A program made the translations under genes and the position numbers. From a candidate division WOR-3 bacterium (GTDB taxonomy: Bacteria; Hydrothermota; Hydrothermia; JBDRYB01), in NCBI GenBank assembly GCA_049969615.1, contig JBMFOM010000001.1, positions 32,083 to 96,082 on the forward strand: a stretch of 64,000 nt of DNA. Reading direction: 5' to 3'. The notes beneath the pieces are model-generated. The model was given only the letters and a program-made list of their open reading frames with translations, was not told the DNA's origin and ran no database searches. Positions 9,493-58,068 of this stretch are shown here, piece by piece (positions within the stretch are counted from its first letter, which is position 1; each line of letters begins with the position of its first letter).

Positions 9493-9521
9493 TTGATCCT
9501 GCGCGGGAAATGGGTTATAAT
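9493..9521 (+). promoter_or_regulatory. Sigma-70-type promoter TTGATC-N17-TATAAT, a member of the conserved GATCCTGCGC...GGGTTATAAT module
   Basis: The sequence ttgatcctgcgcgggaaatgggttataat lies upstream of the carboxypeptidase gene. The same extended motif recurs throughout the window. Confidence 0.6.
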
Positions 9522-9539
9522 TTATCCTGGAGGCATGCG

Positions 9540-11531
9540 ATGATCTCCTTAATCCTTGCAGGCTTGATTTCCTTCAACACCATCGTGGTAAAATTCCCGT
9601 TTTACGGGCAAAACCCCGGCCCCCTTGAGCGCCTGGGGGGCATATCCGTTAAATCCTTTAGGTCAGACACTGTCATAGCCTACGTCAACGAGGATGGGCT
9701 TGCTAGGCTCATATCCCTCGGACTTTCGCCGCAGATCATCATCCCGGACATCAGGGCCTATACAAAGGATCTCTTTGACAAGGGGGTTTATCACACATAC
9801 GATCAGGTGATAAGCATCATGACCGATTCCGCGGCCGCTCACTCGGACATCTGCAGGCTTGACACCATAGGACTTTCGGTTGAGAACAGGCTCATCCTCG
9901 CGTGGCGCATAACGGATAACCCAATGGTTGAGGAGGCTGAGCCAGAGGTCCGCGTCATGGGCAACATCCACGGTGACGAGGTAATAGGCTGTGAGGTCCC
10001 CCTTTACTTTGGCCTGCACCTTTTGAAGAACTATGGCTCTGATCCCGTGGTCACCCGGCTGGTTGATTCCACGGAGATCTGGGTTGTTCCCATGATGAAC
10101 CCAGATGGCCATTATCACGGCTACAGGGAGAATGCCCGCGGCGTTGACCTGAACCGGGACGCCGGCTACTACTGGGACGGGTGGGGAGGCTCGTCCGCTC
10201 CCTTTGGCGAGCCTGAGTCAAGAATATACTTTGCACATGCCCTCGGGAACGAACCAGCGATGGAGTGGGTCTATCACTCCGCGGCCTGGTATGTCAACTA
10301 CCCCTGGGATTACTCGCCAAAGGACCCGCCGGACTCTGGCCTCATAATAACCCTCTGCCAGATATACGCGGACTCGGACTACATGCAGGTCGTCACCAAC
10401 GGGTTTGACTGGTATCAGGTCTGCGGCTCCGTCCAGGACGCTGGCCAGGGCGTTGTTGGTGGGTATTTCATCACAATAGAGACAGACCAGCCCTCCAACG
10501 GCTCCGCGCAGATAGATTCCATATGCACCAGGAGCACAAAGGCCCTCCGTGGACTCATAAGCAGGGCCGGCTGGGGCATCTGGGGCATCGTCACGGACAA
10601 CATCAGCGGCCAGCCGCTCAAGGCAAGGGTTGAATTTGTTTCCCCTGATAGGATAACGGTTTTCACGGATTCCGCCCTTGGCGACTACCACAAGCTCCTC
10701 TCCCCCGGCACCTACACCGTCCGTTTCTGCGCTCAGGGCTACGCGCCGAATGAGGTCTCCGGGGTTGTGGTCCCTTCGTCCGGCTCGGTCAGGGTTGACG
10801 CGGCGCTCGCGCCTGATCCCGAATACAACTACGGGTTCAGGGTCATTTATATAACATATACGGAGGATGATTCCTGGGAACCGGACATCAGAGCGAGGAC
10901 ATGGAAGACCCTCGGGCCCCCGGATGGGGTTTATCAATCCCTGGGCGGCGGAGGCGAGATAGTCATTGACATGGGTCTTGATTCTGCCATTGTTGATGAT
11001 GCGACCAGCCCTGATTTCAGGGTCTACGAGGGCGACGCGTCCTCTGAATCCTACACGGCCTATGTTTCTTCGGACTGGAAAGGCGGTTGGGTTTCCTGTG
11101 GTTCTGCCTCTGGTTCCAACGATTTTGAGATACCGGGTTCCGGCGGCGTCTATCGTTATGTGCGCGTGGTTTCCGCATCCACATCGGAAACGGATTCCCT
11201 GGCTGGGTTTGACCTTGACGCTATTCGCTCCTACACCAAGATAGGAAACATCGGCATTGCCGAGCGCGTTGGCTCCCGGCCGGATTTGCAGGTGAATCTC
11301 CTAGGCAGTCCCGGCAGGGGTAGTGTTGCCCTTGAGCTTGTCCTGGAGAACGAATCCCCCGTTTCCATCAATATCTATGACGCCACTGGCAGGCTCGCCC
11401 TCGCTAGGGACATGGGCAGGTTGCCCCCGGGCCAGCACCAGGTCTTTTTGAGGCTCGTGAATGGCGTCTGGTTCATGAGGATCAAAGCCGGGGCCGAAAC
11501 GAGGACCCTGAAAGCTGTAGTCAGCGAATAA
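9540..11531 (+). CDS. Secreted M14-family zinc carboxypeptidase with a C-terminal T9SS (Por) sorting domain
   Basis: The ORF track starts at 9510 with MGYN, which is an artefact of the ATG inside the -10 box. The real start MISLILAGL... at 9540 follows GGAGG. It carries the M14 HGDE zinc motif (NIHGDEVIG). The C-terminal ~70 aa (YDATGRLALARDMG...VWFMRIKAG...) match a T9SS type-A sorting domain. Confidence 0.7.
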   Translation: MISLILAGLISFNTIVVKFPFYGQNPGPLERLGGISVKSFRSDTVIAYVNEDGLARLISLGLSPQIIIPDIRAYTKDLFDKGVYHTYDQVISIMTDSAAAHSDICRLDTIGLSVENRLILAWRITDNPMVEEAEPEVRVMGNIHGDEVIGCEVPLYFGLHLLKNYGSDPVVTRLVDSTEIWVVPMMNPDGHYHGYRENARGVDLNRDAGYYWDGWGGSSAPFGEPESRIYFAHALGNEPAMEWVYHSAAWYVNYPWDYSPKDPPDSGLIITLCQIYADSDYMQVVTNGFDWYQVCGSVQDAGQGVVGGYFITIETDQPSNGSAQIDSICTRSTKALRGLISRAGWGIWGIVTDNISGQPLKARVEFVSPDRITVFTDSALGDYHKLLSPGTYTVRFCAQGYAPNEVSGVVVPSSGSVRVDAALAPDPEYNYGFRVIYITYTEDDSWEPDIRARTWKTLGPPDGVYQSLGGGGEIVIDMGLDSAIVDDATSPDFRVYEGDASSESYTAYVSSDWKGGWVSCGSASGSNDFEIPGSGGVYRYVRVVSASTSETDSLAGFDLDAIRSYTKIGNIGIAERVGSRPDLQVNLLGSPGRGSVALELVLENESPVSINIYDATGRLALARDMGRLPPGQHQVFLRLVNGVWFMRIKAGAETRTLKAVVSE

Positions 11532-11868
11532 CCTCGCTCTTTATAGCTTTATCACCCTGTCCCCGGCCCTCAAAAGATACACTCCGGGCCTGAGTTCCCT
11601 GAGGTCGTTTCTCCCGTCCTTTCGCGCCCGGGGCCGCAATGCGCACATTGCCAGGCGTTATGCCCGCGAATATGGATGCATAGGTCGGGTTGGAGCAAGG
11701 ATTTGGCGGTTTCGGAGCAAAGATTTGGTTTCTCAAGTTATGACAATGGCCACGAGCACTCTAAGACCATTTGAGGAAAGGATGATGGCCATTGCATTGG
11801 ATATGTTCGGTCTTCCCAGAATACACAAGCCTTGATCCCGCGCGGAAACTGGGTTATAAGCGTGCTGA

Positions 11869-11898
11869 TTGAGCCGGTCCGGGCTCAGGAGCTATAAT
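11869..11898 (+). promoter_or_regulatory. Promoter TTGAGC-N18-TATAAT, placed 6 nt before the panC GTG start (leaderless arrangement)
   Basis: A TATAAT at 11893-11898 is followed by ctcggt and then the in-frame GTG at 11905. A second TATAAG copy of the conserved module sits just upstream at 11832-11860. Confidence 0.45.
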
Positions 11899-11904
11899 CT
11901 CGGT

Positions 11905-12759
11905 GTGCAGGTAATCAAAGCCGTTGGCGAAATGCGGGATGTTTCTGAGGCCTGGCGAAACCAGGGACTTGTCATTGGCTTCGTGCCAACCATGGGCGCG
12001 CTCCACGAGGGTCATTTATCCCTCATGCGCATAGCGAGAGCAAGGTCTGACAGGCTCGTTGTCTCAATATTCGTTAATCCCACCCAGTTCGGACCATCCG
12101 AGGATTACGCCTCTTATCCCAGAAACACGGACGAGGACCTCGCCATGTGCGAGGCCGAGGGTGTTGACGCGGTCTTCATGCCTTCCGTGGATGAGATGTA
12201 TCCGGAGGCCTACTCAACCTATATTGATGTTGAGGGTCTTACCGAGGGTTTGTGCGGCAGGTTCAGGCCAGGCCACTTCAGGGGTGTGGCGACTGTGGTC
12301 GCCAAGCTTTTCAATGCTGTGAGGCCCCACCTGGCTGTTTTCGGCATGAAGGACGCCCAGCAGTTCTTCGTGATAAAAAGGATGACCCGCGACCTTGATT
12401 TCGGCATAGAGATAATACCTGGCCCGACGATCCGGGAGCCGGATGGCCTTGCCATGAGCAGTCGCAACCGGTATCTCAGCCCCGAAGAGAGGGCTGATGC
12501 TCCTGTCATCTACAGGGCGCTTCTGGTAGCGAAAGACCTGGTTGAGCAGGGCGGGGTTCGCGATCCCCATCGCATAATTGAACAGATGGAACATTTCATC
12601 GCGGAGGAATCAACGCTTATCCGCATTCAATACATTGAGATAGTGAGCACGGCCGATCTCAGGCCAGTTGAGAGAATTGATGGCGAGGTCCTCATAGCTA
12701 TAGCGGCGTTTCTCGGAAAGGCAAGGCTAATTGACAACCTGATACTGAACATCCGGTGA
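11905..12759 (+). CDS. panC: Pantoate--beta-alanine ligase
   Basis: A GTG start gives VQVIKAVGEMRD...GFVPTMGALHEGHLSL, the canonical PanC N-terminus with the HxGH motif. The ORF track calls a TTG start at 11869. Confidence 0.85.
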   Translation: MQVIKAVGEMRDVSEAWRNQGLVIGFVPTMGALHEGHLSLMRIARARSDRLVVSIFVNPTQFGPSEDYASYPRNTDEDLAMCEAEGVDAVFMPSVDEMYPEAYSTYIDVEGLTEGLCGRFRPGHFRGVATVVAKLFNAVRPHLAVFGMKDAQQFFVIKRMTRDLDFGIEIIPGPTIREPDGLAMSSRNRYLSPEERADAPVIYRALLVAKDLVEQGGVRDPHRIIEQMEHFIAEESTLIRIQYIEIVSTADLRPVERIDGEVLIAIAAFLGKARLIDNLILNIR

Positions 12760-12965
12760 GCGCGCCTGAGCCAATAAACCAGATTTTGTGGCAAGTTGTA
12801 AGCTTTGAATTATCAGGAAAGTCAACGCTTGACACCCTCATCATGACTCCGGAACCCGGCCGCGGCAAAATCCGGAATCTCTTAAGCAAAACAAGACTTA
12901 TGAGGCCGTGGTTCTGTTCGGTCTCACCAAATACACGAATACATGATCCTGCGCTCAAAATTGGA

Positions 12966-13514
12966 TTATGGCGCGAGTTGCGGACCTCGCTGAGAGGGGC
13001 TTTGCCGGTCTGCGGTTTGGGTTTGGTCCTTTGGGCTATTGATGCTCTGTGATTTTTCGCCGCCCCTATGCCACAACTGCTCGTATTTGACGCCCAGGAG
13101 CGACGCTATCTTTTGTCTGAGTTCCGTGTGCCCGGTCTCCTTGTATATCAGCTTGAAGAGCTTGTGCGGCTCGATCCCTACGGCATCGGCTACGGCCTTT
13201 ACCGTTGGATAACCTGCCTTGTGAGCGATGCGGAGAAACCTCTTGGTGTCTTCCCTTGTGCCGTGAATGATTGATCGGGTGTGGGTCCTGAGTTTCTCCA
13301 GTGGGTCAGGCTCTCCCCATGTTTCTTCATAAGACAGGCCCAAGGTTTGGGCTATCCTTCTCCTGAGGAATATCGCGTCCCGTTTGTTTATGACTACCTG
13401 TGAAAGCCTTTGTCTTGATATTCCCATCTTTTCTGCCAGGCTGGCCATTGTGGGATAACCGAGCTTGTTGATCAGACTCAGGAACCTTTCGGATTCGGGT
13501 TTGGGTATGCCCAT
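12966..13514 (-). CDS. Tandem helix-turn-helix (XRE-like) DNA-binding protein
   Basis: Two ~60-aa repeats: ...LINKLGYPTMASLAEKMGISRQRLSQ...LGLSYEETW and ...IAHKAGYPTVKAVADAVGIEPHKLFK...LGVKYEQLW. Each resembles an HTH domain. Confidence 0.6.
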   Translation of the reverse strand: MGIPKPESERFLSLINKLGYPTMASLAEKMGISRQRLSQVVINKRDAIFLRRRIAQTLGLSYEETWGEPDPLEKLRTHTRSIIHGTREDTKRFLRIAHKAGYPTVKAVADAVGIEPHKLFKLIYKETGHTELRQKIASLLGVKYEQLWHRGGEKSQSINSPKDQTQTADRQSPSQRGPQLAP

Positions 13515-13559
13515 AGTTAGATTATGCAGTAAATTGCCATTGTTTTGCCACTTCTTTGC

Positions 13560-13788
13560 GTTTGGGCCAGGAGCGCTTTGTCCAAGAGAATAGGGTTCTA
13601 TAAGAGGAGTCCCTTGAAAAATCCCGCCACGAGGGCGTTTACTCTCAGGGTTCTCTTCTAGCTATGACGAGGCTCACATCGTGGTCGTAGGGTTTCTATG
13701 TCCCAACCGAGCTTCGGTTCTCTTCTAGCTATGATGAGGTTCACATATATGGACCAGGGACAAACCGGGATTTTTCAGGGGTTCCATA
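13560..13788 (+). repeat. Intergenic repeat family, copy A. It is extended and carries an internal ~60-bp tandem duplication.
   Basis: It shares ccaggagcgctttgtccaagagaa...cccctgaaaaatcccgcc...cagggttctcttctagctatgatgaggct...ggacaaaccgggatttttcagggg with the copies at 24491, 25777, 52138 and 62069. The segment ggttctcttctagctatgacgaggctcacat occurs twice. Confidence 0.85.
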
Positions 13789-13789
13789 A

Positions 13790-13818
13790 ATGATCCTGCG
13801 CAGAAAGTGGGTTATAAT
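13790..13818 (+). promoter_or_regulatory. Conserved promoter module ATGATCCTGCGC-N-GGGTTATAAT, with a leaderless ATG 6 nt downstream
   Basis: The sequence atgatcctgcgcagaaagtgggttataat is followed by atcttt and then ATG at 13825. Confidence 0.6.
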
Positions 13819-13824
13819 ATCTTT

Positions 13825-16266
13825 ATGATGATACTCGGTTTTGTTCTTCTCGCCGGCGACATAGAGGAGGGCGTCGTGTTCCGCCAGCGCCACATGTTCT
13901 CCGAGGCGGAGCGAGCGCTCAGGAGGGCTGTTTATGTTGGGGAGGACACCCTCCGGGCAAAGGCCGAGCTCGCTATAACCTATTACAAGTGGAAGAAATA
14001 CCCAGAGGCCGCGGCAATTTTTTCCAGCATGCAGGAGCTCCTGAACGAGGAGATGTGGGGATATTACCTCGTTTGCCTTCAGGAATTTGATCCGGATAGA
14101 CTCTCGGGCCTGATTGATTCCTTGTCCGGTCAAAAGGATACCTTGGCCCTCCGGATTGCCCTCATGGGCATGTGGCTCAATGATAACAATTCCGGGGCAG
14201 ATTCTGTTGGGCTGAGGCTCGTTTCACTCAATCCAGCTTGTTCTGGTTCCACGCTCTTCGTGAAGGAGCTCGCGAACAACGCGCTCGCCCTGCCGGATTC
14301 CGAGCGGATAAAACGCATTTCCTCGTTTGAGGAACGGATATGGAGGTGTCCGGCCTTCTCCTGGCCTCTGAGAATCAAGGTGGTCTCCATGATCACCCTC
14401 GGTGACACTGCCAGCGCTATATCCGAGCTCAGAAAGTGGACGAAGAGAAAACCGGACGATCCGGAATTGCTCCTGGGCTCAGCGAGCCTGGTCGTGAATT
14501 TCGGCCTTGATGTTCCAGAAGCGGCCGCTTGGGCCAAGGATGCCTTTGTCCTTGCGGGCCAAAAACCCCTTGAGGGCGACGGTCTGGAATCCCCTCAGGA
14601 AAGGAGAATGAGGGCCTTGTTTTATCACGCCATACTCTCTGGCAAGCAGGATGACGAGCTCTGGAAGGATGTTCAGCTTCCTCCGGCGAACAATGACCTG
14701 GGCTTGGTCTCCCTGTATCAATACACGATGGGCCTGCTGGAGCGCGGCCGAGGCAACATGACCCAGGCGAAGGAACATTTCCTCCTTTCGGTTGTGGTTG
14801 GTTCTCCCAGGAACACCTGGCCGGAGAAATCTCTGAAGGCACTCGCTGACATAGGAGTCACCGATCCAGTTGCTGAGGTTAGGAGGATGTTGAATTACTC
14901 TGGCGTCGTTTTTTCTGACAGGACAGCGGATCTTGGTTTTCCTGCGGATATGAGGGCCACCCGCGTAGCGGTTGGTGACTATAACCGGGATGGGTGGGAT
15001 GACCTTCTCATTCAGGGGAGGTTGTTTGAGAACAGGAGGGGCAAGGGTTTCACCGAGGTCACTGACAAGGTTGGGCTTTCTGGGGTTTCCGGATCCGGCG
15101 CGCTGTTTCTGGATTACAACGCGGATGGCTGGGATGATATACTCATAGTTGGTGAGGCCGAGAGGCTCTTCAGGAACGAGAAGGCCAGGAGATTCAAGGA
15201 GGTAACATCAGACGCGGGCATATCCGATACCCTCCCGACAGAGGGCGCGTCCGGGTTTGACCTTAACGGAGATGGGTGGCCCGAGATATACCTTGCCAAC
15301 TACGAGTCAGGCGGGCTGGGAAAGGGAACCCCTGATGTTCTCTGCTTGAACGAACGCGGGAGGTTCCAGCCCACCGAGATTGCCCCTGAAACCCTTTGCG
15401 GCAGGGGGGTTGCCCCTTGCGATTTTGACATGGATGGGGATATTGATCTGTATGTGGCTAATTACAGGCTCCAGAGGAACTTTCTCTATGTGAATCAGGC
15501 CGGTTTGCTCTCAGATTCGGCGTTTCAGTACGGGGTTGCGGGAAAGGACAGAAGGGATTGGTTCGGACACTCAATAGGCCCTGCCTGGGCAGATTACGAT
15601 AACGATGGGGATTTTGACCTCCTGGTCTGCAACCTGGCTCACCCAAGATACATAGATTTCTCCGAGAAGACGGTTTTATATCAGGCGACAGGAAACCGGG
15701 ACGCGCCCTTTCAGGATGTCCGCTCTGAGGTGGGCATAGCATATGACGAGTGCTGCTCCGAGCCGCTCTGGGGGGATTTTGACAACGATGGCGACCTTGA
15801 CCTTTTCATCACCTCCATATATGAGAAAGAGAGGAGCTACCTTTACCAGAACATGCTTTCCGAGACCGGCGAACCCCGTTTCCAAGATATGACATACCCT
15901 GCTGGCGCTCGCGTCCTGAACGGCTGGGGGACCGCGGCCCTGGATTTTGACCAGGACGGAGACCTGGATATCGCGGTTGGCTCCGGCTCAGGTTTCCGTT
16001 TTCTGGTCAACGAGACCAAGACCAACAACGCCTGGATAGAGATAGAGGGACTGCCGCCGGGCGCGGTCGTGAGGCTGGTGGCCGGGGATGCCCTGATGAC
16101 AAGGCAGGTTGAGTTCGCCAAGGGCACGACATCACAGAGCTCGCCCGTCCTACATTTTGGACTCGGCTCCTGGCGTGGCGAGGTGGCAATTGGGGTCTCC
16201 TATCTGGGCAAGAGGAAGACCATAAAGACCAGGGACTTGAACCGCCGGATAAAGTTGAGGATATAG
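13825..16266 (+). CDS. TPR-like N-terminal region, FG-GAP/VCBS repeats and a C-terminal ASPIC/UnbV-like domain (CRTAC1-like)
   Basis: The ORF track starts at 13807 (MGYN artefact). At least seven D-x-D/N-x-D-G-x-x-D repeats are present (DYNRDGWDDLL, DYNADGWDDIL, DLNGDGWPEIY, DFDMDGDIDLY, DYDNDGDFDLL, DFDNDGDLDLF, DFDQDGDLDIA). The C-terminus is WIEIEG...VSYLGKRKT. Confidence 0.65.
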   Translation: MMILGFVLLAGDIEEGVVFRQRHMFSEAERALRRAVYVGEDTLRAKAELAITYYKWKKYPEAAAIFSSMQELLNEEMWGYYLVCLQEFDPDRLSGLIDSLSGQKDTLALRIALMGMWLNDNNSGADSVGLRLVSLNPACSGSTLFVKELANNALALPDSERIKRISSFEERIWRCPAFSWPLRIKVVSMITLGDTASAISELRKWTKRKPDDPELLLGSASLVVNFGLDVPEAAAWAKDAFVLAGQKPLEGDGLESPQERRMRALFYHAILSGKQDDELWKDVQLPPANNDLGLVSLYQYTMGLLERGRGNMTQAKEHFLLSVVVGSPRNTWPEKSLKALADIGVTDPVAEVRRMLNYSGVVFSDRTADLGFPADMRATRVAVGDYNRDGWDDLLIQGRLFENRRGKGFTEVTDKVGLSGVSGSGALFLDYNADGWDDILIVGEAERLFRNEKARRFKEVTSDAGISDTLPTEGASGFDLNGDGWPEIYLANYESGGLGKGTPDVLCLNERGRFQPTEIAPETLCGRGVAPCDFDMDGDIDLYVANYRLQRNFLYVNQAGLLSDSAFQYGVAGKDRRDWFGHSIGPAWADYDNDGDFDLLVCNLAHPRYIDFSEKTVLYQATGNRDAPFQDVRSEVGIAYDECCSEPLWGDFDNDGDLDLFITSIYEKERSYLYQNMLSETGEPRFQDMTYPAGARVLNGWGTAALDFDQDGDLDIAVGSGSGFRFLVNETKTNNAWIEIEGLPPGAVVRLVAGDALMTRQVEFAKGTTSQSSPVLHFGLGSWRGEVAIGVSYLGKRKTIKTRDLNRRIKLRI

Positions 16267-16271
16267 CGCTT

Positions 16272-18526: not shown

Positions 18527-18595
18527 TCCCTCATCAGCAACCCAACCTTGACACCATAATTTGCTGGTCTGAGCGCGGTGAGGGCAAAAACAAGG

Positions 18596-18620
18596 CCCCG
18601 GCGCGCGGGAAACGCCGGGG
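18596..18620 (-). terminator. GC-rich hairpin (ccccggcg / cgccgggg) between convergent genes. It is followed on the minus strand by a T-rich tract.
   Basis: An 8-bp perfect stem with a 9-nt loop. The minus-strand reading continues ccttgtttttgccc. Confidence 0.5.
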
Positions 18621-18645
18621 CATTAAAAAGACCTCTGACGGGGGA

Positions 18646-19257: not shown

Positions 19258-19259
19258 GG

Positions 19260-21368: not shown

Positions 21369-21451
21369 GAAACACCTCCGATATATGGTTTAGCTTCGGT
21401 TTAGCTTCTTCCTCAAGAGCAAAATCCAAGTCATACATCATACAGCTATAT

Positions 21452-21480
21452 ATTATAACCGATCAAGCATGGACTGTCAA
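21452..21480 (-). promoter_or_regulatory. Consensus promoter TTGACA-N17-TATAAT on the minus strand, upstream of the glycine-rich protein gene
   Basis: The plus strand reads attata(21452-57)...tgtcaa(21475-80). This is the reverse complement of ttgacagtccatgcttgatcggttataat. Confidence 0.55.
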
Positions 21481-21554
21481 GGCCCTTTTTAACCCGGAAG
21501 CAGGGAAGGAGGGTGAATTCCCCTCCGGAAGACATTTTCAGAGGATCAACAGGA

Positions 21555-21764: not shown

Positions 21765-22738
21765 GCCTGAAGGAACCCCCGGAGCGCTTCCGCGGCCCTG
21801 GCCTGCGCCTCACTGGCCATGTATAGACGCTCCGCTATGGTTTTCCGGTCCTTTGCGAGGAGGTCTGCCACGAGCTCAAGCGCGGTAAGGGGCCTCAGGG
21901 CCTCCAGTGCTTCACTCCACATGGCCATTGCCCGATCAAGGTGGGGGGAGGAGAGCTCCATTATCTCGGAGGCCATATCCGTGAAGTGCATTGCGGAGAT
22001 GCAGGACCCAGCCGCGCAGGATATTATCCAGTGAAGGCATGAATGGGAGTCCGGCCCGCAGGCCTCGCAATAGGGGTCTTGATCCAAAGCAGAGGCTATT
22101 ATGTCCCAAGCGGGCTTGCCGGTGAGCCAGCCGGGGTCAGAGGGCGCCTTGTTCTCGTATAGGTCAACCGCGTGAGAAAACGCCTCCCGTATAAACGGCA
22201 CGGGATCAGGCTCCTCTCCAGGCTCCCCCAGAACGATTATTTGCCAAGGGAGGTCCATTGTGGCCTCGTATTCTTCGGCCATAACGGGCAAGCCCACGAA
22301 TGAATCCCCGGATACGCCGGCTATGAGGCTCCATTGGCCTGCCCTGAAACCGCCAAAACAGCCCTGTGCTATGACGGGTATGCCGGATTCAAGGCTCTCC
22401 GCGATGGGTTCCTCAAGGTGCTCCGAAAAGAATGAATCCGGTTCATCCAGAAAAGCTTCAAGGTCCTGGGGATACCTGAAACCCTCAGGAATCCTTCTCA
22501 TGGGAACACCAAGGGCGCGGGACGCGAACCCCAGATAAACCGCCTGGTTTCCGGTTGTCCACCAGGCCTTGCACTCCTCGTCCGGGGATGCCTGAACCAT
22601 GAAAGCGGTGCCCAGGATGCCGTTTATAAAATCATAGTCATAGTCATCGCGAAGCCTGGCAACGGCTGATTTTATGGCCCAGCTGAGGGAAACAAACTGA
22701 CCCCCCGTCATCCGGAGGGGCTGAAGTCCTTCAATCAT
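21761..22738 (-). CDS. Hypothetical protein (~325 aa) with a Cys-rich CEACGPDSHSCLHWIISCAAGSC segment
   Basis: The ORF track start at 22744 is a TTG. The ATG at 22738 lies 6 nt downstream of a minus-strand GGGTATAAT (plus 22745-22750), the same leaderless pattern seen elsewhere in the window. Confidence 0.55.
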   Translation of the reverse strand: MIEGLQPLRMTGGQFVSLSWAIKSAVARLRDDYDYDFINGILGTAFMVQASPDEECKAWWTTGNQAVYLGFASRALGVPMRRIPEGFRYPQDLEAFLDEPDSFFSEHLEEPIAESLESGIPVIAQGCFGGFRAGQWSLIAGVSGDSFVGLPVMAEEYEATMDLPWQIIVLGEPGEEPDPVPFIREAFSHAVDLYENKAPSDPGWLTGKPAWDIIASALDQDPYCEACGPDSHSCLHWIISCAAGSCISAMHFTDMASEIMELSSPHLDRAMAMWSEALEALRPLTALELVADLLAKDRKTIAERLYMASEAQARAAEALRGFLQA

Positions 22739-22837
22739 GGGCAAATTATACCCTCGGCTGGGCCGGATTTTCCAATCAAGAGACCTTGAAAACCCCTGAG
22801 CCGAGACCTTAGAATTTGCGTCAGAGGAGGAATAGTA

Positions 22838-24010: not shown

Positions 24011-24038
24011 GAGGGGCACCCATAATCCTTGCCCTGAT

Positions 24039-24476: not shown

Positions 24477-24490
24477 TTATTTGAGAGCTC

Positions 24491-24650: not shown

Positions 24651-24680
24651 TTGATCGTTCACCACTCTCCGGCCTATAAT
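24651..24680 (+). promoter_or_regulatory. Promoter TTGATC-N18-TATAAT upstream of the DegT-like gene
   Basis: The sequence ttgatcgttcaccactctccggcctataat is followed by the GGAGGTG RBS and ATG at 24719. Confidence 0.5.
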
Positions 24681-24718
24681 ATATCCGAGCAAAATAAAAA
24701 GTTTTTTGGAGGTGAAAA

Positions 24719-25684
24719 ATGAAATTGAACAGACACAGTTTTGGAATGCTCGCGGGTAAAACCGCGGCGCGGGGTGAGCGTTTTGAGAGGGTTACCCATG
24801 CTGATGCCCCTGAAACCGAAAATATTCTGCCAGTAAGGGATGCCAACGCGGCTCTTAGGGTAGCCCTATTCGGTCTCGGTCTCGGTCCGGATTGCGAGGT
24901 TCTGGTTCCTGCCTTTGGAAAACATACGCCCGGCCCGGATGTCTTCAGCGTTGGCGCTAGGCCCTCCTATGTGGATGTCGGGGAGGACATTGTCCTCAAC
25001 CGCGGCAACCTCACACGCAAACTGGAAAGCGAATACCGCAGAGAAAATGGCGTTTGGGTCCACAAAAGAAGGGGCTGGGTGCTCCGGGGCATCGTGATGA
25101 CCCATCCGCTCGGCTTCTCGCCGTTCGTTAATGAGGTAGAGGAATTCGCGGCCGAACACGGTCTCGTCTTGGTGGATGATGCCCGCGGTGCGCTTGGCTC
25201 AAGAGTCTGGAGCGCATCGCGTTCCACCTGGATATGCGCTGGTAGCGGAGGAACCGTCGGTGTGGCCTCCTCCGAGAGCGCCTCGTTCCTGGTGTCAAAA
25301 GACCCCGAGCTTCTGATGCTCGTTTCAATGCATGTCAAGACAGCCGAATTCTACGATATGAATGCGGAGGCCATGAAAGAGCTCCGGATAGCCGGCGCAC
25401 AGGCCAGGAAATCTATAGGGGAGATCCTGAGCCGCGCTGGCCTCGGGAATGTCCTGGAAACGCCAAATTACTGTCAATCAGCTTGCCGAGAGGTTCTTCT
25501 GATCGCTGAGCATGACAGGGATGAGGCCATGGACCGCCTTGAAGAGGCCGGGTTTATAGCCGAATCCAATTTCTATCCCCAAGCGATCATGGAGGCCTGC
25601 GAGAGGCAATTTGGCTATAGAAAGGGCAGGTGTCCGGACTCAGAGGAACTAGCGAGGAGGGCTATAGCCGTGAGAAGGAAGTAG
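24719..25684 (+). CDS. Divergent, N-terminally short DegT/DnrJ/EryC1/StrS-family aminotransferase-like protein
   Basis: ILPVRDANAALRVALFGLGLGPDCEVLVPAF...VDV... aligns to the DegT small-domain region. A candidate PLP lysine lies in ASFLVSK. The usual GEGG after the lysine and about 25 N-terminal residues are missing. Confidence 0.5.
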   Translation: MKLNRHSFGMLAGKTAARGERFERVTHADAPETENILPVRDANAALRVALFGLGLGPDCEVLVPAFGKHTPGPDVFSVGARPSYVDVGEDIVLNRGNLTRKLESEYRRENGVWVHKRRGWVLRGIVMTHPLGFSPFVNEVEEFAAEHGLVLVDDARGALGSRVWSASRSTWICAGSGGTVGVASSESASFLVSKDPELLMLVSMHVKTAEFYDMNAEAMKELRIAGAQARKSIGEILSRAGLGNVLETPNYCQSACREVLLIAEHDRDEAMDRLEEAGFIAESNFYPQAIMEACERQFGYRKGRCPDSEELARRAIAVRRK

Positions 25685-25956: not shown

Positions 25957-25972
25957 ATGAGCAATATGGACC

Positions 25973-26002
25973 TTGAATCTGCCGCAGGAAGTGGGCTATA
26001 AT
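25973..26002 (+). promoter_or_regulatory. Conserved promoter module (TTGAATCTGCCGC...GGGCTATAAT) with the ATG 7 nt downstream
   Basis: The sequence ttgaatctgccgcaggaagtgggctataat is followed by ttcctcc and then ATG at 26010. Confidence 0.55.
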
Positions 26003-26009
26003 TTCCTCC

Positions 26010-27065
26010 ATGAAGATAACTGATGTTTATGCGGTTCTGAGAAGGGTGAAACACGGCGATGGAGATGTGGTATCAGCGGGTTTTGTCAAGGGAGTTTCAA
26101 TAACCGGCGAAAGGGTCTCTGTGGTCTTTCTGTTCCCGGATGAGATGAGGGGCAAGGAAAAACCGCTCCTGGAAGAGGCGCGAAAACTGCTTGAGGCAGA
26201 GGGCGCGGAGAAGATAGACTTTGAGGTCAACTTTGCCATTCTCACGGGAAAAAAGAGTACGGCAGACCTCAAGAAAAGGCCCATCCCTGGAGTAAAAAAT
26301 GTTATTCTCGTGACCAGCGGAAAGGGGGGCGTCGGCAAGTCAACGGTTGCCGCGAACCTGGCCGCGGAGCTGGCTCTAAGGGGACTGAGAGTGGGGCTGT
26401 TTGACGCGGATGTCTATGGACCATCAGTGCCAACCCTCATGGGCATCCAGGGTGCGGAAATAAGGGCGGAAAACGACAAGATAATCCCGGTTGAAGCATA
26501 TAGGGTAAAGGTAATGTCCCTCGGCCTGATGCTTGAGGATGACAGTCCCGTGATTTGGCGAGGCCCTCTGGTTCACAAAGCATACGAACAACTTCTGTTT
26601 GAAACCAATTGGGGCGAGTTGGATTTTCTCGTGCTTGACCTTCCGCCCGGAACAGGAGACGCTCAATTGTCTATGGCGCAACTGGTGGAGATAGCGGGGG
26701 GCCTGGTGGTTACAACGCCGCAGGTCCTCGCGATCAATGATGTGCGGAGGGCCCTGTCCATGCTCAGAAAGGTTGATGTCCCAGCCATAGGCATAGTGGA
26801 AACCATGAGCTACTACAAATGTCCAGGGTGCGGCCGCGAAGAGAACATCTTCGGTGAGGGGGGTGGAGAGAGGCTCTCGGCCGAAACCGGGGTTCCCCTC
26901 CTGGCGAAGATACCCATGGAGATTGATCTCGTGGCCGCCTCGGACGCGGGGATACCCATAGTGGTCGCGAAGCCCAATTCCGAAGCCACAAAAGCCTTTG
27001 TTCGTCTGGCAGAGGAGGTGGTAAGTTATGTCACAAAGGGAAGGGTCAAATCCGTGGAGGACTAG
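26010..27065 (+). CDS. apbC: Mrp/ApbC/NBP35-family Fe-S cluster carrier ATPase with an N-terminal DUF59/MIP18-like domain
   Basis: A Walker A box (SGKGGVGKSTVAANLA) is present. The later CPGC motif (YYKCPGCGRE) is also present. Confidence 0.85.
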   Translation: MKITDVYAVLRRVKHGDGDVVSAGFVKGVSITGERVSVVFLFPDEMRGKEKPLLEEARKLLEAEGAEKIDFEVNFAILTGKKSTADLKKRPIPGVKNVILVTSGKGGVGKSTVAANLAAELALRGLRVGLFDADVYGPSVPTLMGIQGAEIRAENDKIIPVEAYRVKVMSLGLMLEDDSPVIWRGPLVHKAYEQLLFETNWGELDFLVLDLPPGTGDAQLSMAQLVEIAGGLVVTTPQVLAINDVRRALSMLRKVDVPAIGIVETMSYYKCPGCGREENIFGEGGGERLSAETGVPLLAKIPMEIDLVAASDAGIPIVVAKPNSEATKAFVRLAEEVVSYVTKGRVKSVED

Positions 27066-45969: not shown

Positions 45970-46047
45970 ATCTTCTTACTCTGTATAGAGGGTGACAGGA
46001 TGGCAAAGCCTTTGAATTGGCACGGGTTCAAGGGTCATAATATAACC

Positions 46048-47496
46048 ATGAATGATAAAGCGATTCGGGTTCGTTTCGCTCCCAGCCCAACAGGTTACCT
46101 GCACCTGGGCGGAGCGAGGACTGCCCTTTATAACTGGCTCTTCGCGAGGAAGACCGGAGGCGTCTTCATCCTGAGGATTGAGGACACGGATAGGTCAAGG
46201 CTCGTGCCGGATTCTGTTCAGGACATAACCGAGAACCTCGCTTGGCTGGGAATACCGCCCGACGAGGGGCCGTATTTCCAATCGGAGAGGAGGGACATAT
46301 ATCTCAAGAAGGCACAGGAGCTCGTGGAGCGCGGAGCCGCGTATCCGTGTTTCTGCACGCATGAGCGCCTTGACAGGGTTAGGGAGGAACGCAGGAGGGC
46401 CGGGCTGAAGGTTGGCTATGACAGGGCCTGTAGGAACCTCTCGCCGGAGGAGGCCTCTGACAGGATGAGACATGGCGTGCCACATGTGATCAGGCTAAAG
46501 GTGCCGCTTTCTGGCGAGATAACATTCGTGGACCTCCTGAGGGGCAAGATAACCTATGAGTGCAGGGAGCTTGAGGACATAGTGCTCCTTAAGTCAGACG
46601 GCTGGCCAACATATCACCTGGCGAATGTGGTTGATGACCACGATATGGGGATAACCCACATAATGCGCGCGGACGAATGGCTCCCCTCAGTGCCTTATCA
46701 TGTCATCATGTATGAGGCATTCGGTTGGGAACCGCCCCTGTTCGTTCATCTGCCGGTCATCCTCTCGCCGGACGGCAAGGGTAAGATGTCAAAGAGGGCC
46801 GGCGCTTTTGCCATAAGGGAAGTGAGGGCCGAGGGGTATCTCCCTGAGGCTGTGGTCAATTACCTGGCCCTGTTGGGCTGGTCTCCAGGGGACGACAGGG
46901 AGATAATGAGCCTGGCGGAGATGGCAGAGAAGTTCAGCCTTGAAAGGCTCTCGGTTAGGGGGGCTGTTTTCAGCTATGATAAACTGCTCTGGATGAACGG
47001 GGAATACCTGCGCGCGACCGCTGACGAGAGGCTTTTTCAGCTGGCTTTGTCGTTCTACGAGAAGGCGGGCTACATGGACCAGGAGACCATCCGTAGGATA
47101 ATCCCCCTGTTCAAGGACAGGGTCAAGACCCTGAGTGAACTGCCGGCCATATCCGGGTATTTCTTCAGAGAACCGGAATCCTACGACGAGGCCGGGGTCA
47201 AAAAACACTTCAAGGGGACAGAGACAGCCAACATCCTGATGGAGCTCGCGAATAAGCTATCTGGCCTCCAGCGGTGGGAGCCAATGGAAATAGAGAGGGT
47301 CATCCGCGCGCTCGCGGAACACAACAGCGTCTCTGCGGGAAAAATCATTCACCCAGCGAGGCTCGCGCTCTCTGGAATGACCTTCGGCCCAGGACTATTT
47401 GAGATGATGGCCGCCCTGGGAAAGGAGACCTGCCTCGCCAGGCTGAGAAGGGCCTCGGAATGGATAGAGAAAAACCTTGAGGAGGTGGGGAAATGA
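46048..47496 (+). CDS. gltX: Glutamyl-tRNA synthetase
   Basis: IRVRFAPSPTGYLHLGGARTALYNWLFA contains the HIGH motif, and KMSKR is also present. The start MNDKAIRVRF lies 6 nt downstream of a CATAAT -10 (TTGAAT-N18-CATAAT), again a leaderless arrangement. The ORF track start is at 46000. Confidence 0.9.
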   Translation: MNDKAIRVRFAPSPTGYLHLGGARTALYNWLFARKTGGVFILRIEDTDRSRLVPDSVQDITENLAWLGIPPDEGPYFQSERRDIYLKKAQELVERGAAYPCFCTHERLDRVREERRRAGLKVGYDRACRNLSPEEASDRMRHGVPHVIRLKVPLSGEITFVDLLRGKITYECRELEDIVLLKSDGWPTYHLANVVDDHDMGITHIMRADEWLPSVPYHVIMYEAFGWEPPLFVHLPVILSPDGKGKMSKRAGAFAIREVRAEGYLPEAVVNYLALLGWSPGDDREIMSLAEMAEKFSLERLSVRGAVFSYDKLLWMNGEYLRATADERLFQLALSFYEKAGYMDQETIRRIIPLFKDRVKTLSELPAISGYFFREPESYDEAGVKKHFKGTETANILMELANKLSGLQRWEPMEIERVIRALAEHNSVSAGKIIHPARLALSGMTFGPGLFEMMAALGKETCLARLRRASEWIEKNLEEVGK

Positions 47497-52137: not shown

Positions 52138-52207
52138 ATGGTTCTGGCTATGATGAGACTTTCGGATAGGGACCAAGGACAAACCGGGGTTTTTCAGGGG
52201 TTTCAAT
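52138..52207 (+). repeat. Intergenic repeat family, copy D (3' half only)
   Basis: The sequence ggttctggctatgatgagactttcggatagggaccaaggacaaaccggggtttttcaggggtttcaata aligns to the 3' half of copies A, C and E. Confidence 0.8.
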
Positions 52208-52354
52208 AAGGCAATCCCCGATCCTCCTAAGCTAAGCCTTAGGACCATAGGCACTTCCGCCGAACTTATTGACGGACAGGGACTTATAATGGATCGAACC
52301 TGGGTCTGGTGAGAACAGGCACCGGGTCAAGGAGAGACATTATAATTTCCCACC

Positions 52355-53233
52355 ATGAAAACCCTGCTTATGTTTCCGGGCCAGGCATCTCAGTATGTCG
52401 GGATGGGAAAGGCCCTGTACGAGAGTAGCGAGAAGGCTCGCGTTGTAATGGACATGGCCCAGGAAATAACGGGCCTACCCATAAAGAGGATGTGCTTTGA
52501 GGGACCGGAGGAGCTTTTGACCAGGACTGATAATGCCCAGCCGTGCATAGTCGCTTGCTCGCTGGCCGCGCTGTCTGCGTGGGAGGGCGAGTTTCACATG
52601 GCAACGGGTCACAGCCTCGGGGAGTATTCAGCCCTTGCCGCGGCAGGCGCGATAACCTACGAGGACGCCATGAGGCTGGTCAAGAGAAGGGGCGAGCTCA
52701 TGGCAAGGGCGGATGAGATGAGGCCGGGGACCATGGCCGCGATAGTCGGGCTGGACGAGGCGAGCATAAGGGATGCCCTCGCGGAGGCAGGGGGCGTTGT
52801 CATAATAGCGAACATAAACTCGCCTGACCAGATCGTGATCTCAGGTGAGACGGACGCGGTCGCAATGGCGAGCGAGATACTCTCCGGGCGCGGGGCCAAG
52901 AGGGTTATTCCCCTGAAGGTCTCGGCCGCGTTTCACTCTCCGCTCATGGAACCGGCCTCAGAGGCCCTGAGGCCGGACATAGAGGCCACGGAGTTCAGGG
53001 CGCCGAGGGTCCCGGTGATACCATGCGCTACCGCAAAGGCAACAACCGACCCCGCGGAACTCAAAAACGCGCTGTTGGTTCAACTGCTCAGCCCGGTCAG
53101 GTGGACGGACATGCTTGCCGAGGCGAGAAACCGGGGCGCGGAGAGATTCCTTGAGATGGGGCCAGGAAAGGTATTGCAGGGCTTGGCGAAGAGGACAGTT
53201 CAGGACGCGACCATAGAGGGGTTCGGCTCGTAG
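52355..53233 (+). CDS. fabD: Malonyl-CoA:ACP transacylase
   Basis: LMFPGQASQYVGMG and the active-site GHSLGEYSAL motif are present. Confidence 0.9.
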   Translation: MKTLLMFPGQASQYVGMGKALYESSEKARVVMDMAQEITGLPIKRMCFEGPEELLTRTDNAQPCIVACSLAALSAWEGEFHMATGHSLGEYSALAAAGAITYEDAMRLVKRRGELMARADEMRPGTMAAIVGLDEASIRDALAEAGGVVIIANINSPDQIVISGETDAVAMASEILSGRGAKRVIPLKVSAAFHSPLMEPASEALRPDIEATEFRAPRVPVIPCATAKATTDPAELKNALLVQLLSPVRWTDMLAEARNRGAERFLEMGPGKVLQGLAKRTVQDATIEGFGS

Positions 53234-53243
53234 AACAGGGAGC

Positions 53244-53954
53244 CTACATGGCCTCCTGGACGATCCTTATCCCCGAGGATGTGCCTATGACATCCGCGCC
53301 AGCCAACTGCATCCTCTGCAGGTCCTCAAGCGTCCTTATGCCGCCGGAGGCCTTCACCCCACAGCCGGTCCCCTCAACAGCAAAGTGTAGCAAAGCAACA
53401 TCATATAGGGTCGCTCCCCCGGCGAGGAACCCCGTGGAGGTCTTTACGAAAGAGACCCCCGCGCCAGCGAGGGCTTTTGCCGCGCCCTCTTTCTCTTCCT
53501 CAGAAAGAAGCCCGCACTCAAGAATTGCCTTGAGGGGAACGCCAAAAGAAAGGAGCGCGTTTGCCTCGGCCTCAAGCCCAGCGAAATCCTTTCTCTTAGC
53601 CAGGGAGATGTCAATCACATAGTCAATCTCGGAGACCCCGGTATTGACGAGGAGCTCAGCCTCCCTCACCTTCACATCAATGGCGTGAAAACCCATCGGA
53701 AAACCAACAACCGAGACAAGGGGCATCTTCTCCGCGCCGATGGCCTCGCGAGCCACCGCGGCCGCTTTCGGGCCTACGACTATTGATCTGAAGGGATACT
53801 TCAGGCTCTCCTGGACGAACCTCAGGACCTGGTCTGGGGTCGCCTCTGGGTGGAGCAATGTGTTATCAATTACTCTGGCCACATCATCCGGATCAGCAGG
53901 CTCAAGGAAGGCCTTCCTGGCCTCCTCGGCCCATGCTTGGGCTTTTCGGTTCAT
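53244..53954 (-). CDS. deoC: Deoxyribose-phosphate aldolase
   Basis: IDNTLLHPEATPDQV, VVGFPMG and the Schiff-base lysine context FVKTSTGF are present. The real start MNRKAQAW lies 6 nt downstream of a minus-strand GGGTTATAAT. The ORF track start is the MGYN artefact. Confidence 0.85.
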   Translation of the reverse strand: MNRKAQAWAEEARKAFLEPADPDDVARVIDNTLLHPEATPDQVLRFVQESLKYPFRSIVVGPKAAAVAREAIGAEKMPLVSVVGFPMGFHAIDVKVREAELLVNTGVSEIDYVIDISLAKRKDFAGLEAEANALLSFGVPLKAILECGLLSEEEKEGAAKALAGAGVSFVKTSTGFLAGGATLYDVALLHFAVEGTGCGVKASGGIRTLEDLQRMQLAGADVIGTSSGIRIVQEAM

Positions 53955-53960
53955 GCGCAA

Positions 53961-53989
53961 ATTATAACCCATAGCCCGCGCGGGATCAT
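53961..53989 (-). promoter_or_regulatory. Conserved promoter module on the minus strand (ATGATCCCGCGCGGGCTATGGGTTATAAT), driving leaderless deoC
   Basis: The plus strand reads attataacccatagcccgcgcgggatcat. Confidence 0.6.
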
Positions 53990-54041
53990 GTATTTAGGTA
54001 TCTGGGAAGACCGGGCAGACCCACCCCCACGGACCGACCTG

Positions 54042-56330: not shown

Positions 56331-56528
56331 AACAATCCTCCTTTACGAGCCTCGCCCTTTTTTGCGGGAGCGGGGCAAATCTCATTCCTTAACTGCTCCA
56401 GGCACAAATTCTAAAGCTCGCGTGGGTACGGACGCACCATTTGATTCTCCCCGGATGCGCAAATACATGATTCTGCGCAGGAAATAGGCTACAATTGCCT
56501 CCCTCATGATCACCACCCTGCGCGAGAC

Positions 56529-56557
56529 CTTGCATGACTATGCGACTTGCTTTATAA
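56529..56557 (+). promoter_or_regulatory. Promoter TTGCAT-N17-TATAAT for the ferredoxin gene. A second copy of the conserved module lies upstream at 56467-56495 (ATGATTCTGCGCAGGAAATAGGCTACAAT).
   Basis: Both sets of -35/-10 hexamers are visible at 17-nt spacing. Confidence 0.5.
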
Positions 56558-56597
56558 TCTTCTACCTTAACGATGAACTTTAGGAGGAACTGAAAAG

Positions 56598-56816: not shown

Positions 56817-56847
56817 CACCGTCCCCCACACCCACCACCCCCTCCTG

Positions 56848-56882
56848 CCCCAGGGAGCCCCAGCGGCTCCCTGGGGTTTATT
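56848..56882 (+). terminator. Rho-independent terminator: a 12-bp perfect stem (ccccagggagcc / ggctccctgggg), a 5-nt loop, then TTTATT
   Basis: Read directly from the sequence. It lies 32 nt downstream of the ferredoxin stop. Confidence 0.85.
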
Positions 56883-57130
56883 ATCTGGCCCGTCGGGCTA
56901 AAGCCCGACCTGGGAACGAGGGAATTTTAGGGGCCAGTTCAGTATTGTTTTCCCAGCGCAGGCTTTAGCCTGCGGCCGGCCCGTGGCGCAGGGTTTGGCC
57001 TTGCCAAAGTCAACAAAAATGCGGCCAAGCAGACAGGACAATAAAAACAATGATTGCACCCCATAGCAGAACCCTGTTCCCTTGGGCAAATGGGTTGAGA
57101 AAGCGTGAGAGCTCAGAGAGGCTCAGGTAT

Positions 57131-57159
57131 TTGATCCTCAGCGGGCCGTGGGCTATAAT
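57131..57159 (+). promoter_or_regulatory. Conserved promoter module TTGATCCTCAGCGGGCCGTGGGCTATAAT, with the ATG 6 nt downstream
   Basis: The -10 hexamer is followed by ttcggg and then ATG at 57166. Confidence 0.55.
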
Positions 57160-57165
57160 TTCGGG

Positions 57166-58068
57166 ATGTTATGGCTTTTGTTTTGCCTCTGTCCCCAGGA
57201 AAAGGATTCCCTTACCCTGCGCCTTGATTCCCTCTTCGCCAGGGCATCCCGATGGGAGGTTGGCACAGACGCGGACACCGCGCGCGCGGCCAGAGACACC
57301 CTGATCAAGATGAGGGATGTGACCCTTGATTATATCTTCCAATACAAGATGAACACCGGAGAGAGCCTGGAACTCCGGGCCATGGAAGTCATATTCAAGG
57401 GCCTCGCGATTGAGGCACGCCCAAGGCTCCTTTCTGTTCTCACGCACGAAAACGACACCGTTCGTTCAAACGCCATATATCTCGTCGGACAGATAAAGGA
57501 CACAATGCTAGCGGATACCATAGCCTCGTTGCTCAAGACCGAAAAGAAGCCCGGGGTCAAAAGGAGGGCAATCTACACCCTGGGCGAGCTTGGCCTCGCA
57601 AGGAGCGCGGATGCCATAAAGCCCTATCTGTCCGATACCTCTGAACGCATGCGCCTAGCCGCGGTCATTGCCCTTGGAAAGATAAAGTCTGATCCGGCAA
57701 TCCTCTGTGGGATGCTCACGGACAAAAGCCTCCTGGTCCGAGAGGCCGCGGAGACAGGGCTTGAGGCTTCCGGTAGCACAGGCCTGCTTCTTGAACGGCT
57801 CGGAAAATCCTCCGGCCGAGAGAGGGCGAACTACCTGAAGGCCATGGGCCTGGTCTTCAGGAAATCAAGGCCAGATGAGAACGAATCCGCCCGGGCGCGC
57901 AGAGCCATCTTTCCCCTGCTTGACAGCCCACTGCCAACCGAGAGGGCATGGGCCGCTTGGGCACTTGCGCCAATTGCTGATGAAGGAACCAGAACGAAGT
58001 TCGCTCTCATGAACCAGACCGAAGCAGATCCTTTCGTATTGTGGTGTCTGGAGGAGGCACTAAAATGA
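57166..58068 (+). CDS. HEAT-repeat (PBS-lyase-like) lipoprotein
   Basis: The real start MLWLLFCLCPQ (LFCLC is lipobox-like) follows the MGYN artefact. Repeated xAAxALGxIG helices are present, for example RRAIYTLGELG and RLAAVIALGKIK. Confidence 0.65.
   Translation: MLWLLFCLCPQEKDSLTLRLDSLFARASRWEVGTDADTARAARDTLIKMRDVTLDYIFQYKMNTGESLELRAMEVIFKGLAIEARPRLLSVLTHENDTVRSNAIYLVGQIKDTMLADTIASLLKTEKKPGVKRRAIYTLGELGLARSADAIKPYLSDTSERMRLAAVIALGKIKSDPAILCGMLTDKSLLVREAAETGLEASGSTGLLLERLGKSSGRERANYLKAMGLVFRKSRPDENESARARRAIFPLLDSPLPTERAWAAWALAPIADEGTRTKFALMNQTEADPFVLWCLEEALK

Follow-up and report, generated by a model that had tools for sequence, protein, structure and literature searches.

The 64,000-nucleotide (nt) stretch analyzed here, hereafter the window, derives from the genome of an uncultured candidate division WOR-3 bacterium (GenBank assembly GCA_049969615.1, contig JBMFOM010000001.1, positions 32,083 to 96,082 of the forward strand). 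All counts given below refer to this window, and positions are numbered from its first letter. The non-coding fraction is 8.5%. A search for tRNA and tmRNA genes in the window found none, and at the gathering threshold an Rfam scan returned clustered regularly interspaced short palindromic repeats (CRISPR) only. Dispersed through the non-coding DNA is a short promoter-like sequence, which we call the module or family A. At least nine copies of the module lie within 50 kb. All nine are in non-coding DNA, and eight are oriented toward the gene downstream.

A family of predicted promoter copies

The module has a 30-nt core that consists of a -35 box (WTGATC), a spacer of 17-18 nt, and a -10 box (TATAAT), which follows GGGY. 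Five copies remain similar for about 32 nt more on the upstream side of the -35 box (GTYCGGTCTYCCCAGAATACACAAATAC), which results in a unit of about 62 nt that stops sharply at the -10 box. With at most one mismatch allowed, GGGTTATAAT had 13 matches in the window where 2.3 were expected, and 13 was not attained in any of 100 dinucleotide-preserving shuffles of the window. The upstream half TGATCCTGCGC, allowing at most two mismatches, adjoins eight of the nine copies and is exact at three; outside the module, the upstream block is not significantly enriched in the window. An nhmmer profile built from the five full-length copies assigned these copies E-values of 1e-19 to 4e-14 and also recovered three core-only copies and the ninth copy. 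In a consensus scan for sigma-70 promoters, the module matched at 10 of 12 hexamer positions, as did the neighboring non-module promoters. A Dam or restriction-site explanation for the GATC in the -35 box was considered as well; this tetranucleotide is only mildly rarer than expected in the window (214 observed, 276 expected). Inverted repeats of at least 8 nt were sought in four full copies and none was found, so that the 62-nt unit has no terminal inverted repeats. We also considered whether the opposite strand of the module could encode an intrinsic terminator; inspection ruled this out, as the palindrome lacks a loop and the stem would be too short.

The nine copies differ in how they stand to the gene downstream (Table 1). 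Four have leaderless geometry, two are followed by a short leader with a GGAGG site, another two stand upstream of a promoter that belongs to the gene itself, and the last is an orphan. The original prediction, drawn from the letters of this stretch, had described a recurrent extended promoter lying 6-7 nt before start codons. The described sequence is present at each of its positions, most of which the consensus scan reported as sigma-70-like with 10-12 of 12 hexamer positions matched, and the motif is real and far above chance; its eight copies become nine with the one at 59615-59644 on the minus strand, which had been overlooked. The distance of 6-7 nt to the start codon is correct for four of nine (FG-GAP, apbC, deoC and HEAT), not for the rest. 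The panC gene does begin 6 nt after a -10 box, at GTG 11905, but that box is a second TATAAT at 11893-11898 and not that of the module. The Shine-Dalgarno sites that had been noted for the M14 and ferredoxin genes are present.

Table 1 Module copies, other promoters and family-B repeats in the window. E-values are from the family-A nhmmer profile; distances in nt are from the -10 box to the start codon; aa, amino acids; HTH, helix-turn-helix.
Feature	Position	Strand	Sequence and geometry	Gene and surroundings
Module, full copy	9460..9521	+	about 32-nt block and TTGATC-17-TATAAT core; E=7e-17	18 nt with GGAGG, then ATG 9540 of M14 carboxypeptidase gene
Module, full copy	11798..11860	+	-10 is TATAAG; E=6.5e-18	directly upstream of panC's own conserved promoter
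Module, orphan full copy	12908..12970	+	degenerate -10 (GGATTATGG); E=1.2e-16	points into 3' end of convergent tandem-HTH gene; no gene to drive
Module, core-only copy	13790..13827	+	ATGATC-17-TATAAT, 6 nt, ATG 13825; leaderless geometry	FG-GAP protein
Module, core-only copy	25973..26012	+	TTGAAT-18-TATAAT, 7 nt, ATG 26010; leaderless geometry	ApbC/Mrp-type P-loop NTPase
Module, full copy	53952..54024	-	module, 6 nt, ATG 53954; E=1.2e-19; leaderless geometry	deoC (TIGR00126)
Module, full, slightly truncated copy	56446..56495	+	-10 is TACAAT; E=4e-14	about 100 nt upstream of ferredoxin gene (ATG 56598), which has its own proximal TTGCAT-17-TATAAT (-10 at 56553-56558) and AGGAGG site
Module, core-only copy	57131..57168	+	TTGATC-17-TATAAT, 6 nt, ATG 57166; leaderless geometry	HEAT-repeat protein
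Module, core-only ninth copy	59585..59644	-	TTGATC-18-TATAAT at 59615-59644 (TTGATCCCGCGCGGAAAACTATGTTATAAT); E=0.0015	27-nt leader with GGAGG, then TTG 59587 of LppM-domain lipoprotein; module TGA is the ligA stop codon
panC proximal promoter	11869..11907	+	TTGAGC-18-TATAAT, 6 nt, GTG 11905; leaderless geometry	kept in L024 and L026
gltX promoter	46012..46050	+	TTGAAT-18-CATAAT, 6 nt, ATG 46048; leaderless geometry	gltX
Promoter of 325-aa hypothetical	22736..22774	-	TGGAAA-18-TATAAT, 6 nt, ATG 22738; leaderless geometry	325-aa hypothetical protein
fabD -10 box	52341..52357	+	TATAAT, 8 nt, ATG 52355; leaderless geometry	fabD
STAS promoter	62016..62056	-	TTGAAC-18-TATACT, 8 nt, ATG 62018	STAS protein (120 aa)
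-10 box of tandem-HTH gene	13512..13526	-	CATAAT, 6 nt, ATG 13514; leaderless geometry	repressor-like protein
-10 box of 238-aa hypothetical	62891..62907	+	CATAAT, 8 nt, ATG 62905; leaderless geometry	238-aa hypothetical protein
Consensus promoter	21452..21480	-	TTGACA-17-TATAAT; leadered transcript	702-aa gene starts at 21368 with GAGG
Leadered promoter	24651..24721	+	TTGATC-18-TATAAT; 38-nt leader with GGAGG, ATG 24719	DegT-family protein
Family B, near full length	13545-13790			abuts -35 box of FG-GAP copy
Family B, near full length	25767-25958			just upstream of apbC copy
Family B, near full length	62058-62252			abuts -35 box of STAS promoter
Family B, fragment	24483-24591			
Family B, fragment	52141-52205			
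Family B, fragment	9397-9459			abuts module copy 9460..9521 on its upstream side
Family B, fragment	57056-57091	-	inverted	near HEAT copy

When the spacer alone was compared, module copies agreed at a median of 11 of 17 positions, versus 5 of 17 for the non-module promoters of the window. The differences between copies are mostly transitions, and subfamilies share variants at the least-conserved spacer positions: the copies at 11832 and 59644 share GGAAAC, and those at 13790 and 25973, both of which follow a family-B repeat (see below), share CAGRAAGT. Subfamily structure and the predominance of transitions together fit descent from a common copy. The proteins encoded downstream have Pfam and NCBIfam assignments that all differ, and self-BLAST found no coding paralogy beside the copies. 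We consider it probable that the module is a complete housekeeping promoter of the sigma-70/sigma-A type, and that its copies form a paralogous family private to this WOR-3 genome.

According to this model, the RNA polymerase holoenzyme would bind both hexamers and start about 7 nt after the -10 box. At four copies the start would coincide with the A of the ATG, resulting in a transcript without a 5' untranslated region or Shine-Dalgarno sequence, which would be translated as a leaderless mRNA. Two copies would give a short GGAGG leader, two would act as an extra promoter upstream of the gene's own, and one would be a decayed orphan. Common descent would be the main cause of the conservation beyond the hexamers. 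Within this lineage, the cassette would have spread, or been duplicated by recombination, into further intergenic positions, frequently where gene order differs from that of relatives, and would have taken the place of the upstream halves of older promoters or been added to them ("promoter propagation").

Comparison with relatives and public collections

The GltX, PanC and LigA proteins of the window match NCBI proteins of a candidate division WOR-3 metagenome-assembled genome at 100% identity (one accession is MGC8893271.1). We compared the window with about 116 kb of non-redundant syntenic DNA from relatives (loci L010-L013 and L024-L030), whose GltX, PanC and LigA proteins are 80-85% identical to those of the window. 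Profiles of family A and of the second repeat, family B, found no copy in this DNA, and self-BLAST of each related locus revealed neither dispersed intergenic repeats nor private promoter repeats. We also scanned 185,579 species genomes and the Joint Genome Institute (JGI) metagenomes with a 28-nt pattern that matches five of the window copies. This gave 9 and 10 matches, respectively, all of them singletons in unrelated taxa without family-A context.

Orthologous promoters were compared as well. At the module promoters of deoC, M14 and FG-GAP, agreement with the orthologues over the 24 nt upstream of the -10 box is at the chance level (5-8 nt), so that these promoters share only the -10 box and start codon with relatives. 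The corresponding figure for the non-module promoters of gltX, panC (proximal) and STAS is 11-18 of 24. At panC, homology to the relatives begins immediately after the end of the module. At ligA, the relatives cease to match at the start of the module, and have unrelated sequence after the gene. Gene order differs from that of the relatives at several copies, namely ahead of M14, on either side of panC, and after ligA and bamA.

One sequence outside the source genome recalls the module. In L011, at 9990-10010 and just upstream of the gltX -35 box, GACATCCTGCGCGCCC resembles the module block GATCCTGCGCGGG; this relative is at 81%. It is the only such hint, and could reflect chance or a shared binding site.

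A second intergenic repeat

Family B is a second private dispersed intergenic repeat of about 195 nt, a mosaic of sub-blocks found near full length at three sites and as fragments at four (Table 1). Its 3' part of about 115 nt folds into a hairpin with an outer stem of about 19 bp, formed from a 16-nt perfect inverted repeat (CCCCTGAAAAATCCCG / CGGGATTTTTCAGGGG). A comparison of family B with Rfam gave no match, even at E-values up to 1. Family B often abuts the -35 box of a promoter, as at FG-GAP, apbC and STAS.

Between the orphan module copy and the family-B repeat at FG-GAP lies a minus-strand gene (12966-13514) that encodes a 182-aa protein with two tandem phage-repressor-like HTH domains. 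The gene is absent from the same locus in L024 and L026. It may be an accessory or mobile gene, and is a possible candidate for a protein that binds the repeats.

Origin of the extra conservation

Several observations weigh against the model of a paralogous promoter family. Self-BLAST placed the best pair of copies at 79.7% identity over 59 nt, and most pairs fall at 46-70% over about 68-70 columns including short flanks; such modest identity implies that the family is old or only partly homologous. The sequence upstream of the fabD -10 box, a non-module control, is likewise not conserved, so that module promoters are not the only ones to have lost similarity to their orthologues. On the upstream side, the flanks at panC, M14 and ligA cannot be aligned with the relatives, and no target-site duplication is definable. 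The manner in which the cassette spread is one that we infer, no mechanism of spread being visible. Spacer conservation is also uneven: CYGCGC beside the -35 box and GGG ahead of the -10 box hardly vary, and more variation is found in the 7 nt that separate them, which hints at selection on more than the hexamers. Finally, the count of copies covers 64 kb of the genome, and we infer promoter activity, transcription start sites and leaderless translation from sequence.

The uneven spacer would also fit a regulatory explanation. A dimeric factor would bind a 12-bp dyad (TCCYGC|GCRGGA) that reaches from about -31 to -20 across parts of the -35 box and of the spacer, and would co-regulate, probably repress, all module promoters; this is compatible with a paralogous origin. 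The CYGCGC block forms the dyad together with the two final bases of the -35 box, and the dyad has a fixed position in most copies. A dyad-symmetric operator in the spacer is possible: the dyad is present in 7-8 of the nine copies, its Y/R positions are usually complementary (C pairs with G in three of three; T pairs with A in three, with G in two and with T in one), and CYGCGC and GGG vary less than the 7 nt that separate them. The sequence upstream of the core is of three kinds (the A block, family B, and coding or unique sequence), as expected if the core were the selected unit, and the lineage-specific tandem-HTH gene lies between the orphan copy and a family-B copy. However, the apparent covariation may be inherited among nine copies that are related. 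The dyad is absent from the orthologous promoters of deoC, M14, FG-GAP and panC, and outside the module it is not enriched (18 matches, a number reached in 7 of 100 shuffles, against 12.7 expected). The downstream genes (peptidase, panC, FG-GAP, apbC, deoC, ferredoxin, HEAT and lipoprotein) are functionally unrelated. Co-regulation through the dyad is thus conceivable but doubtful in our view. As the main cause of the conservation, which is one of two roles the original prediction had considered, a regulator-binding site does not fit orthologous promoters that lack the block and downstream genes that are unrelated. The other role, recognition by a non-housekeeping sigma factor, would draw on the unusual conservation outside the hexamers and on nothing else. 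WTGATC and TATAAT at 17-18 nt are the sigma-70 consensus, the same hexamers occur at the non-module promoters of gltX, panC, dnaN and STAS in the window and in relatives, and there is no resemblance to the extracytoplasmic function (ECF), sigma-54, sigma-28 or sigma-32 consensus as these are generally known. With hexamers and spacing canonical and matching those of nearby promoters, we regard an alternative sigma specificity as very improbable.

The association of the two repeat families raises a different explanation, in which the module is the outward-facing promoter end of a non-autonomous, transposon-like repeat resembling a miniature inverted-repeat transposable element (MITE) or a Correia element, with family B as its body, and spreads by transposition. 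Four of the nine cores lie within 80 nt of family-B pieces, the family-B hairpin with its 16-nt perfect inverted repeat resembles MITE termini, and the ends of Correia elements are known to give rise to promoters (PMC2649163). About a quarter of the window's non-coding DNA belongs to families A and B, both are absent from the relatives' DNA examined, and copies coincide with gene-order breaks. Yet the arrangement is not fixed, since family B occurs without a core at 24483, 52141 and 62058 and the core without family B at 53961, 56467 and 59615. The 62-nt unit lacks terminal inverted repeats, neither a target-site duplication nor an empty site is definable, and the window contains no transposase gene. 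We consider a transposon of this kind unlikely. A more far-reaching proposal would combine regulation and mobility: a self-propagating "mobile regulon", in which a promoter with an embedded 12-bp operator would have colonized hundreds of intergenic sites in this WOR-3 species and, by landing its -10 box 6-7 nt from start codons, converted genes to leaderless expression under one regulator, moving without terminal inverted repeats, unlike known MITEs. This we hold to be decidedly improbable.

Leaderless geometry and start codons

Across both strands of the window, a -10-like hexamer ends 6-8 nt upstream of 30 of the 3382 ATG and GTG codons (0.9%). About 12 of these 30 are the starts of first genes of transcription units, and they account for about 12 of roughly 22 such first genes: panC, tandem-HTH, FG-GAP, the 325-aa hypothetical, apbC, gltX, fabD, deoC, HEAT, STAS, the 238-aa hypothetical and probably cas6. 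Genes inside operons mostly have GGAGG-type sites. The start codons are consistent with protein-level evidence. Pfam profiles start at residues 1-6 of PanC, GltX and ApbC, the NCBI annotation agrees on the starts of GltX (482 aa) and PanC (284 aa), and similarity to orthologues in relatives begins at the start codon.

The geometry is retained in relatives, both at genes that have the module in the window and at genes that do not. At gltX, CATAAT followed by 6 nt and ATG is found in three genomes, and the -35 box, -10 box and spacing are kept in L010 and L011; fabD has TATAAT, 8 nt and ATG in the same two loci. The deoC orthologue in L010 keeps TATAAT, 6 nt and ATGAAC without the module block, and the FG-GAP orthologue in L026 keeps TATCAT, 6 nt and ATGATG, again without the block. 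TATAAT, 6 or 7 nt and GTG are kept at panC in L024 and L026, and the STAS promoter, with TATACT, 8 nt and ATG, is kept in L027 and L029. The claim of the original prediction that leaderless mRNAs are widespread has good support, as a prediction, both from the sequence, through the geometry counts, and from the relatives, through conservation in the gltX, panC, fabD, deoC, FG-GAP and STAS orthologues. Leaderless initiation would then be a separate and older trait of the lineage, found at about half of the first genes irrespective of the module.

Start codons of this kind are prone to misannotation. An ATG or GTG inside (A/G)TGGGTTATAAT opens the frame of four open reading frames (ORFs) with starts at 9510, 13807, 53972 (minus strand) and 57148, each of which acquires a false M/V-G-Y-N N-terminus; the original prediction had rightly recognized this MGYN artefact. 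Among close relatives, GltX has been called at 482, 494, 498, 511 or 514 aa, and PanC at 274 aa (from a downstream ATG) or 284 aa (from the GTG). Start-site errors are likely to be systematic in annotations of WOR-3 metagenome-assembled genomes. At the ninth module copy, two long ORFs overlap on opposite strands (58988-59626, plus; 59039-59587, minus). The minus-strand ORF, with an LppM domain, a GGAGG site and a module promoter, is the genuine gene, and the plus-strand ORF is probably spurious.

We also inspected two more distant WOR-3 genomes (L031 and L032; GltX 58-61% identical, 40% GC). Several first genes there (lexA, rbfA and a FIST-domain gene) have TATAAT 6-9 nt before the ATG, an anecdotal observation, and gltX is led by a Shine-Dalgarno sequence in one genome and by TAAAAT, 7 nt and ATG in the other. 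Across the WOR-3 phylum, leaderless use may be widespread but variable. A literature search found no searchable paper that pairs leaderless genes with WOR-3.

Relation to known systems

Leaderless genes can be recognized by a TANNNT box about 10 nt ahead of the start codon (Zheng et al., PMC3160421). In Deinococcus this signature has been validated experimentally, and there too it causes false N-terminal extensions (PMC12340547). The window genes resemble these TA-led genes of Deinococcus-Thermus and Actinobacteria (PMC3160421, PMC12340547) in several respects: the -10 box ends 6-8 nt before ATG or GTG without a Shine-Dalgarno sequence, the geometry occurs mainly at first genes of units, with internal genes keeping GGAGG, and gene callers extend N-termini through the promoter (here MGYN, and in relatives a GltX of 494-514 aa). 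The bare TANNNT of high-GC phyla contrasts with the predicted -10 box here, which is a complete TATAAT and has a clear -35 box at a distance of 17-18 nt.

Families of near-identical promoters that precede unrelated genes occur widely (Matus-Garcia et al. 2012, PMC3488235). Like putative mobile promoters (PMC3488235; PMC3575422), which are near-identical, species-specific promoter sequences of 50-100 nt upstream of non-homologous genes, the module family precedes genes of unrelated function; its best pair falls just below the cut-off used for them (at least 80% over at least 50 nt, PMC3488235). The family differs from mobile promoters in its high local density, with nine copies in 50 kb for about a third of the local transcription units, and in a cassette that ends exactly at the -10 box, which in four cases would give leaderless transcripts. 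As with the Correia elements of Neisseria (PMC2649163), short dispersed intergenic repeats provide promoters to adjacent genes and include a hairpin-forming body.

The modular composition of family-B sub-blocks and the module core can be likened to that of BOX elements and bacterial interspersed mosaic elements (BIMEs), which are mosaic intergenic repeats. In contrast to Correia, BOX and BIME elements, the promoter unit has no terminal inverted repeats and no recognizable TA target duplication, shows no sequence similarity to them, and has no Rfam match. Taken together, these comparisons indicate two known phenomena, leaderless genes and promoter propagation, in a new lineage; a new mechanism is not needed.

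WOR-3 is an uncultured phylum without genetics, and one of its lineages shows textbook sigma-70 promoters. With about half of its transcription units predicted to start at the start codon, this lineage would join the short list of leaderless-rich bacteria. For annotation, this means that callers misplace leaderless starts, as in the false MGYN extensions, GltX at 494-514 aa, and PanC truncated to 274 aa. If about a third of the local promoters do share one recently spread sequence, the window is a dense example of promoter propagation, and the cassette suggests fast rewiring of expression as well as a link between intergenic repeats and genome rearrangement.

The CRISPR-cas locus and gene order

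At one end of the window lies a CRISPR array (33-1473) of 22 repeats, classified by Rfam as CRISPR-DR2, with a 30-nt repeat GTTTCAATCCCTCATAGGTAGGCTATGAAC. One of its spacers (199-208) holds CCTGCGCGGG, an exact match to the 10-nt palindrome of the module, which is probably a coincidence, given that 12.7 such matches with at most one mismatch are expected by chance. A cas operon on the minus strand (1849-9351) adjoins the array. Its cas6 gene probably starts at GTG 9351, 6 nt after TATCAT, and not at the longest-ORF start at 9480.

In L024, M14 directly follows a cluster of murC through ftsZ and a radical SAM gene on the same strand. The cas locus of the window thus marks a break in gene order. 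In the window (9540-27657 versus 27723-45938), M14 and this cell-division cluster are 16 kb apart and on opposite strands. This arrangement implies an inversion or rearrangement, one end of which would lie upstream of M14, at the module/family-B junction.

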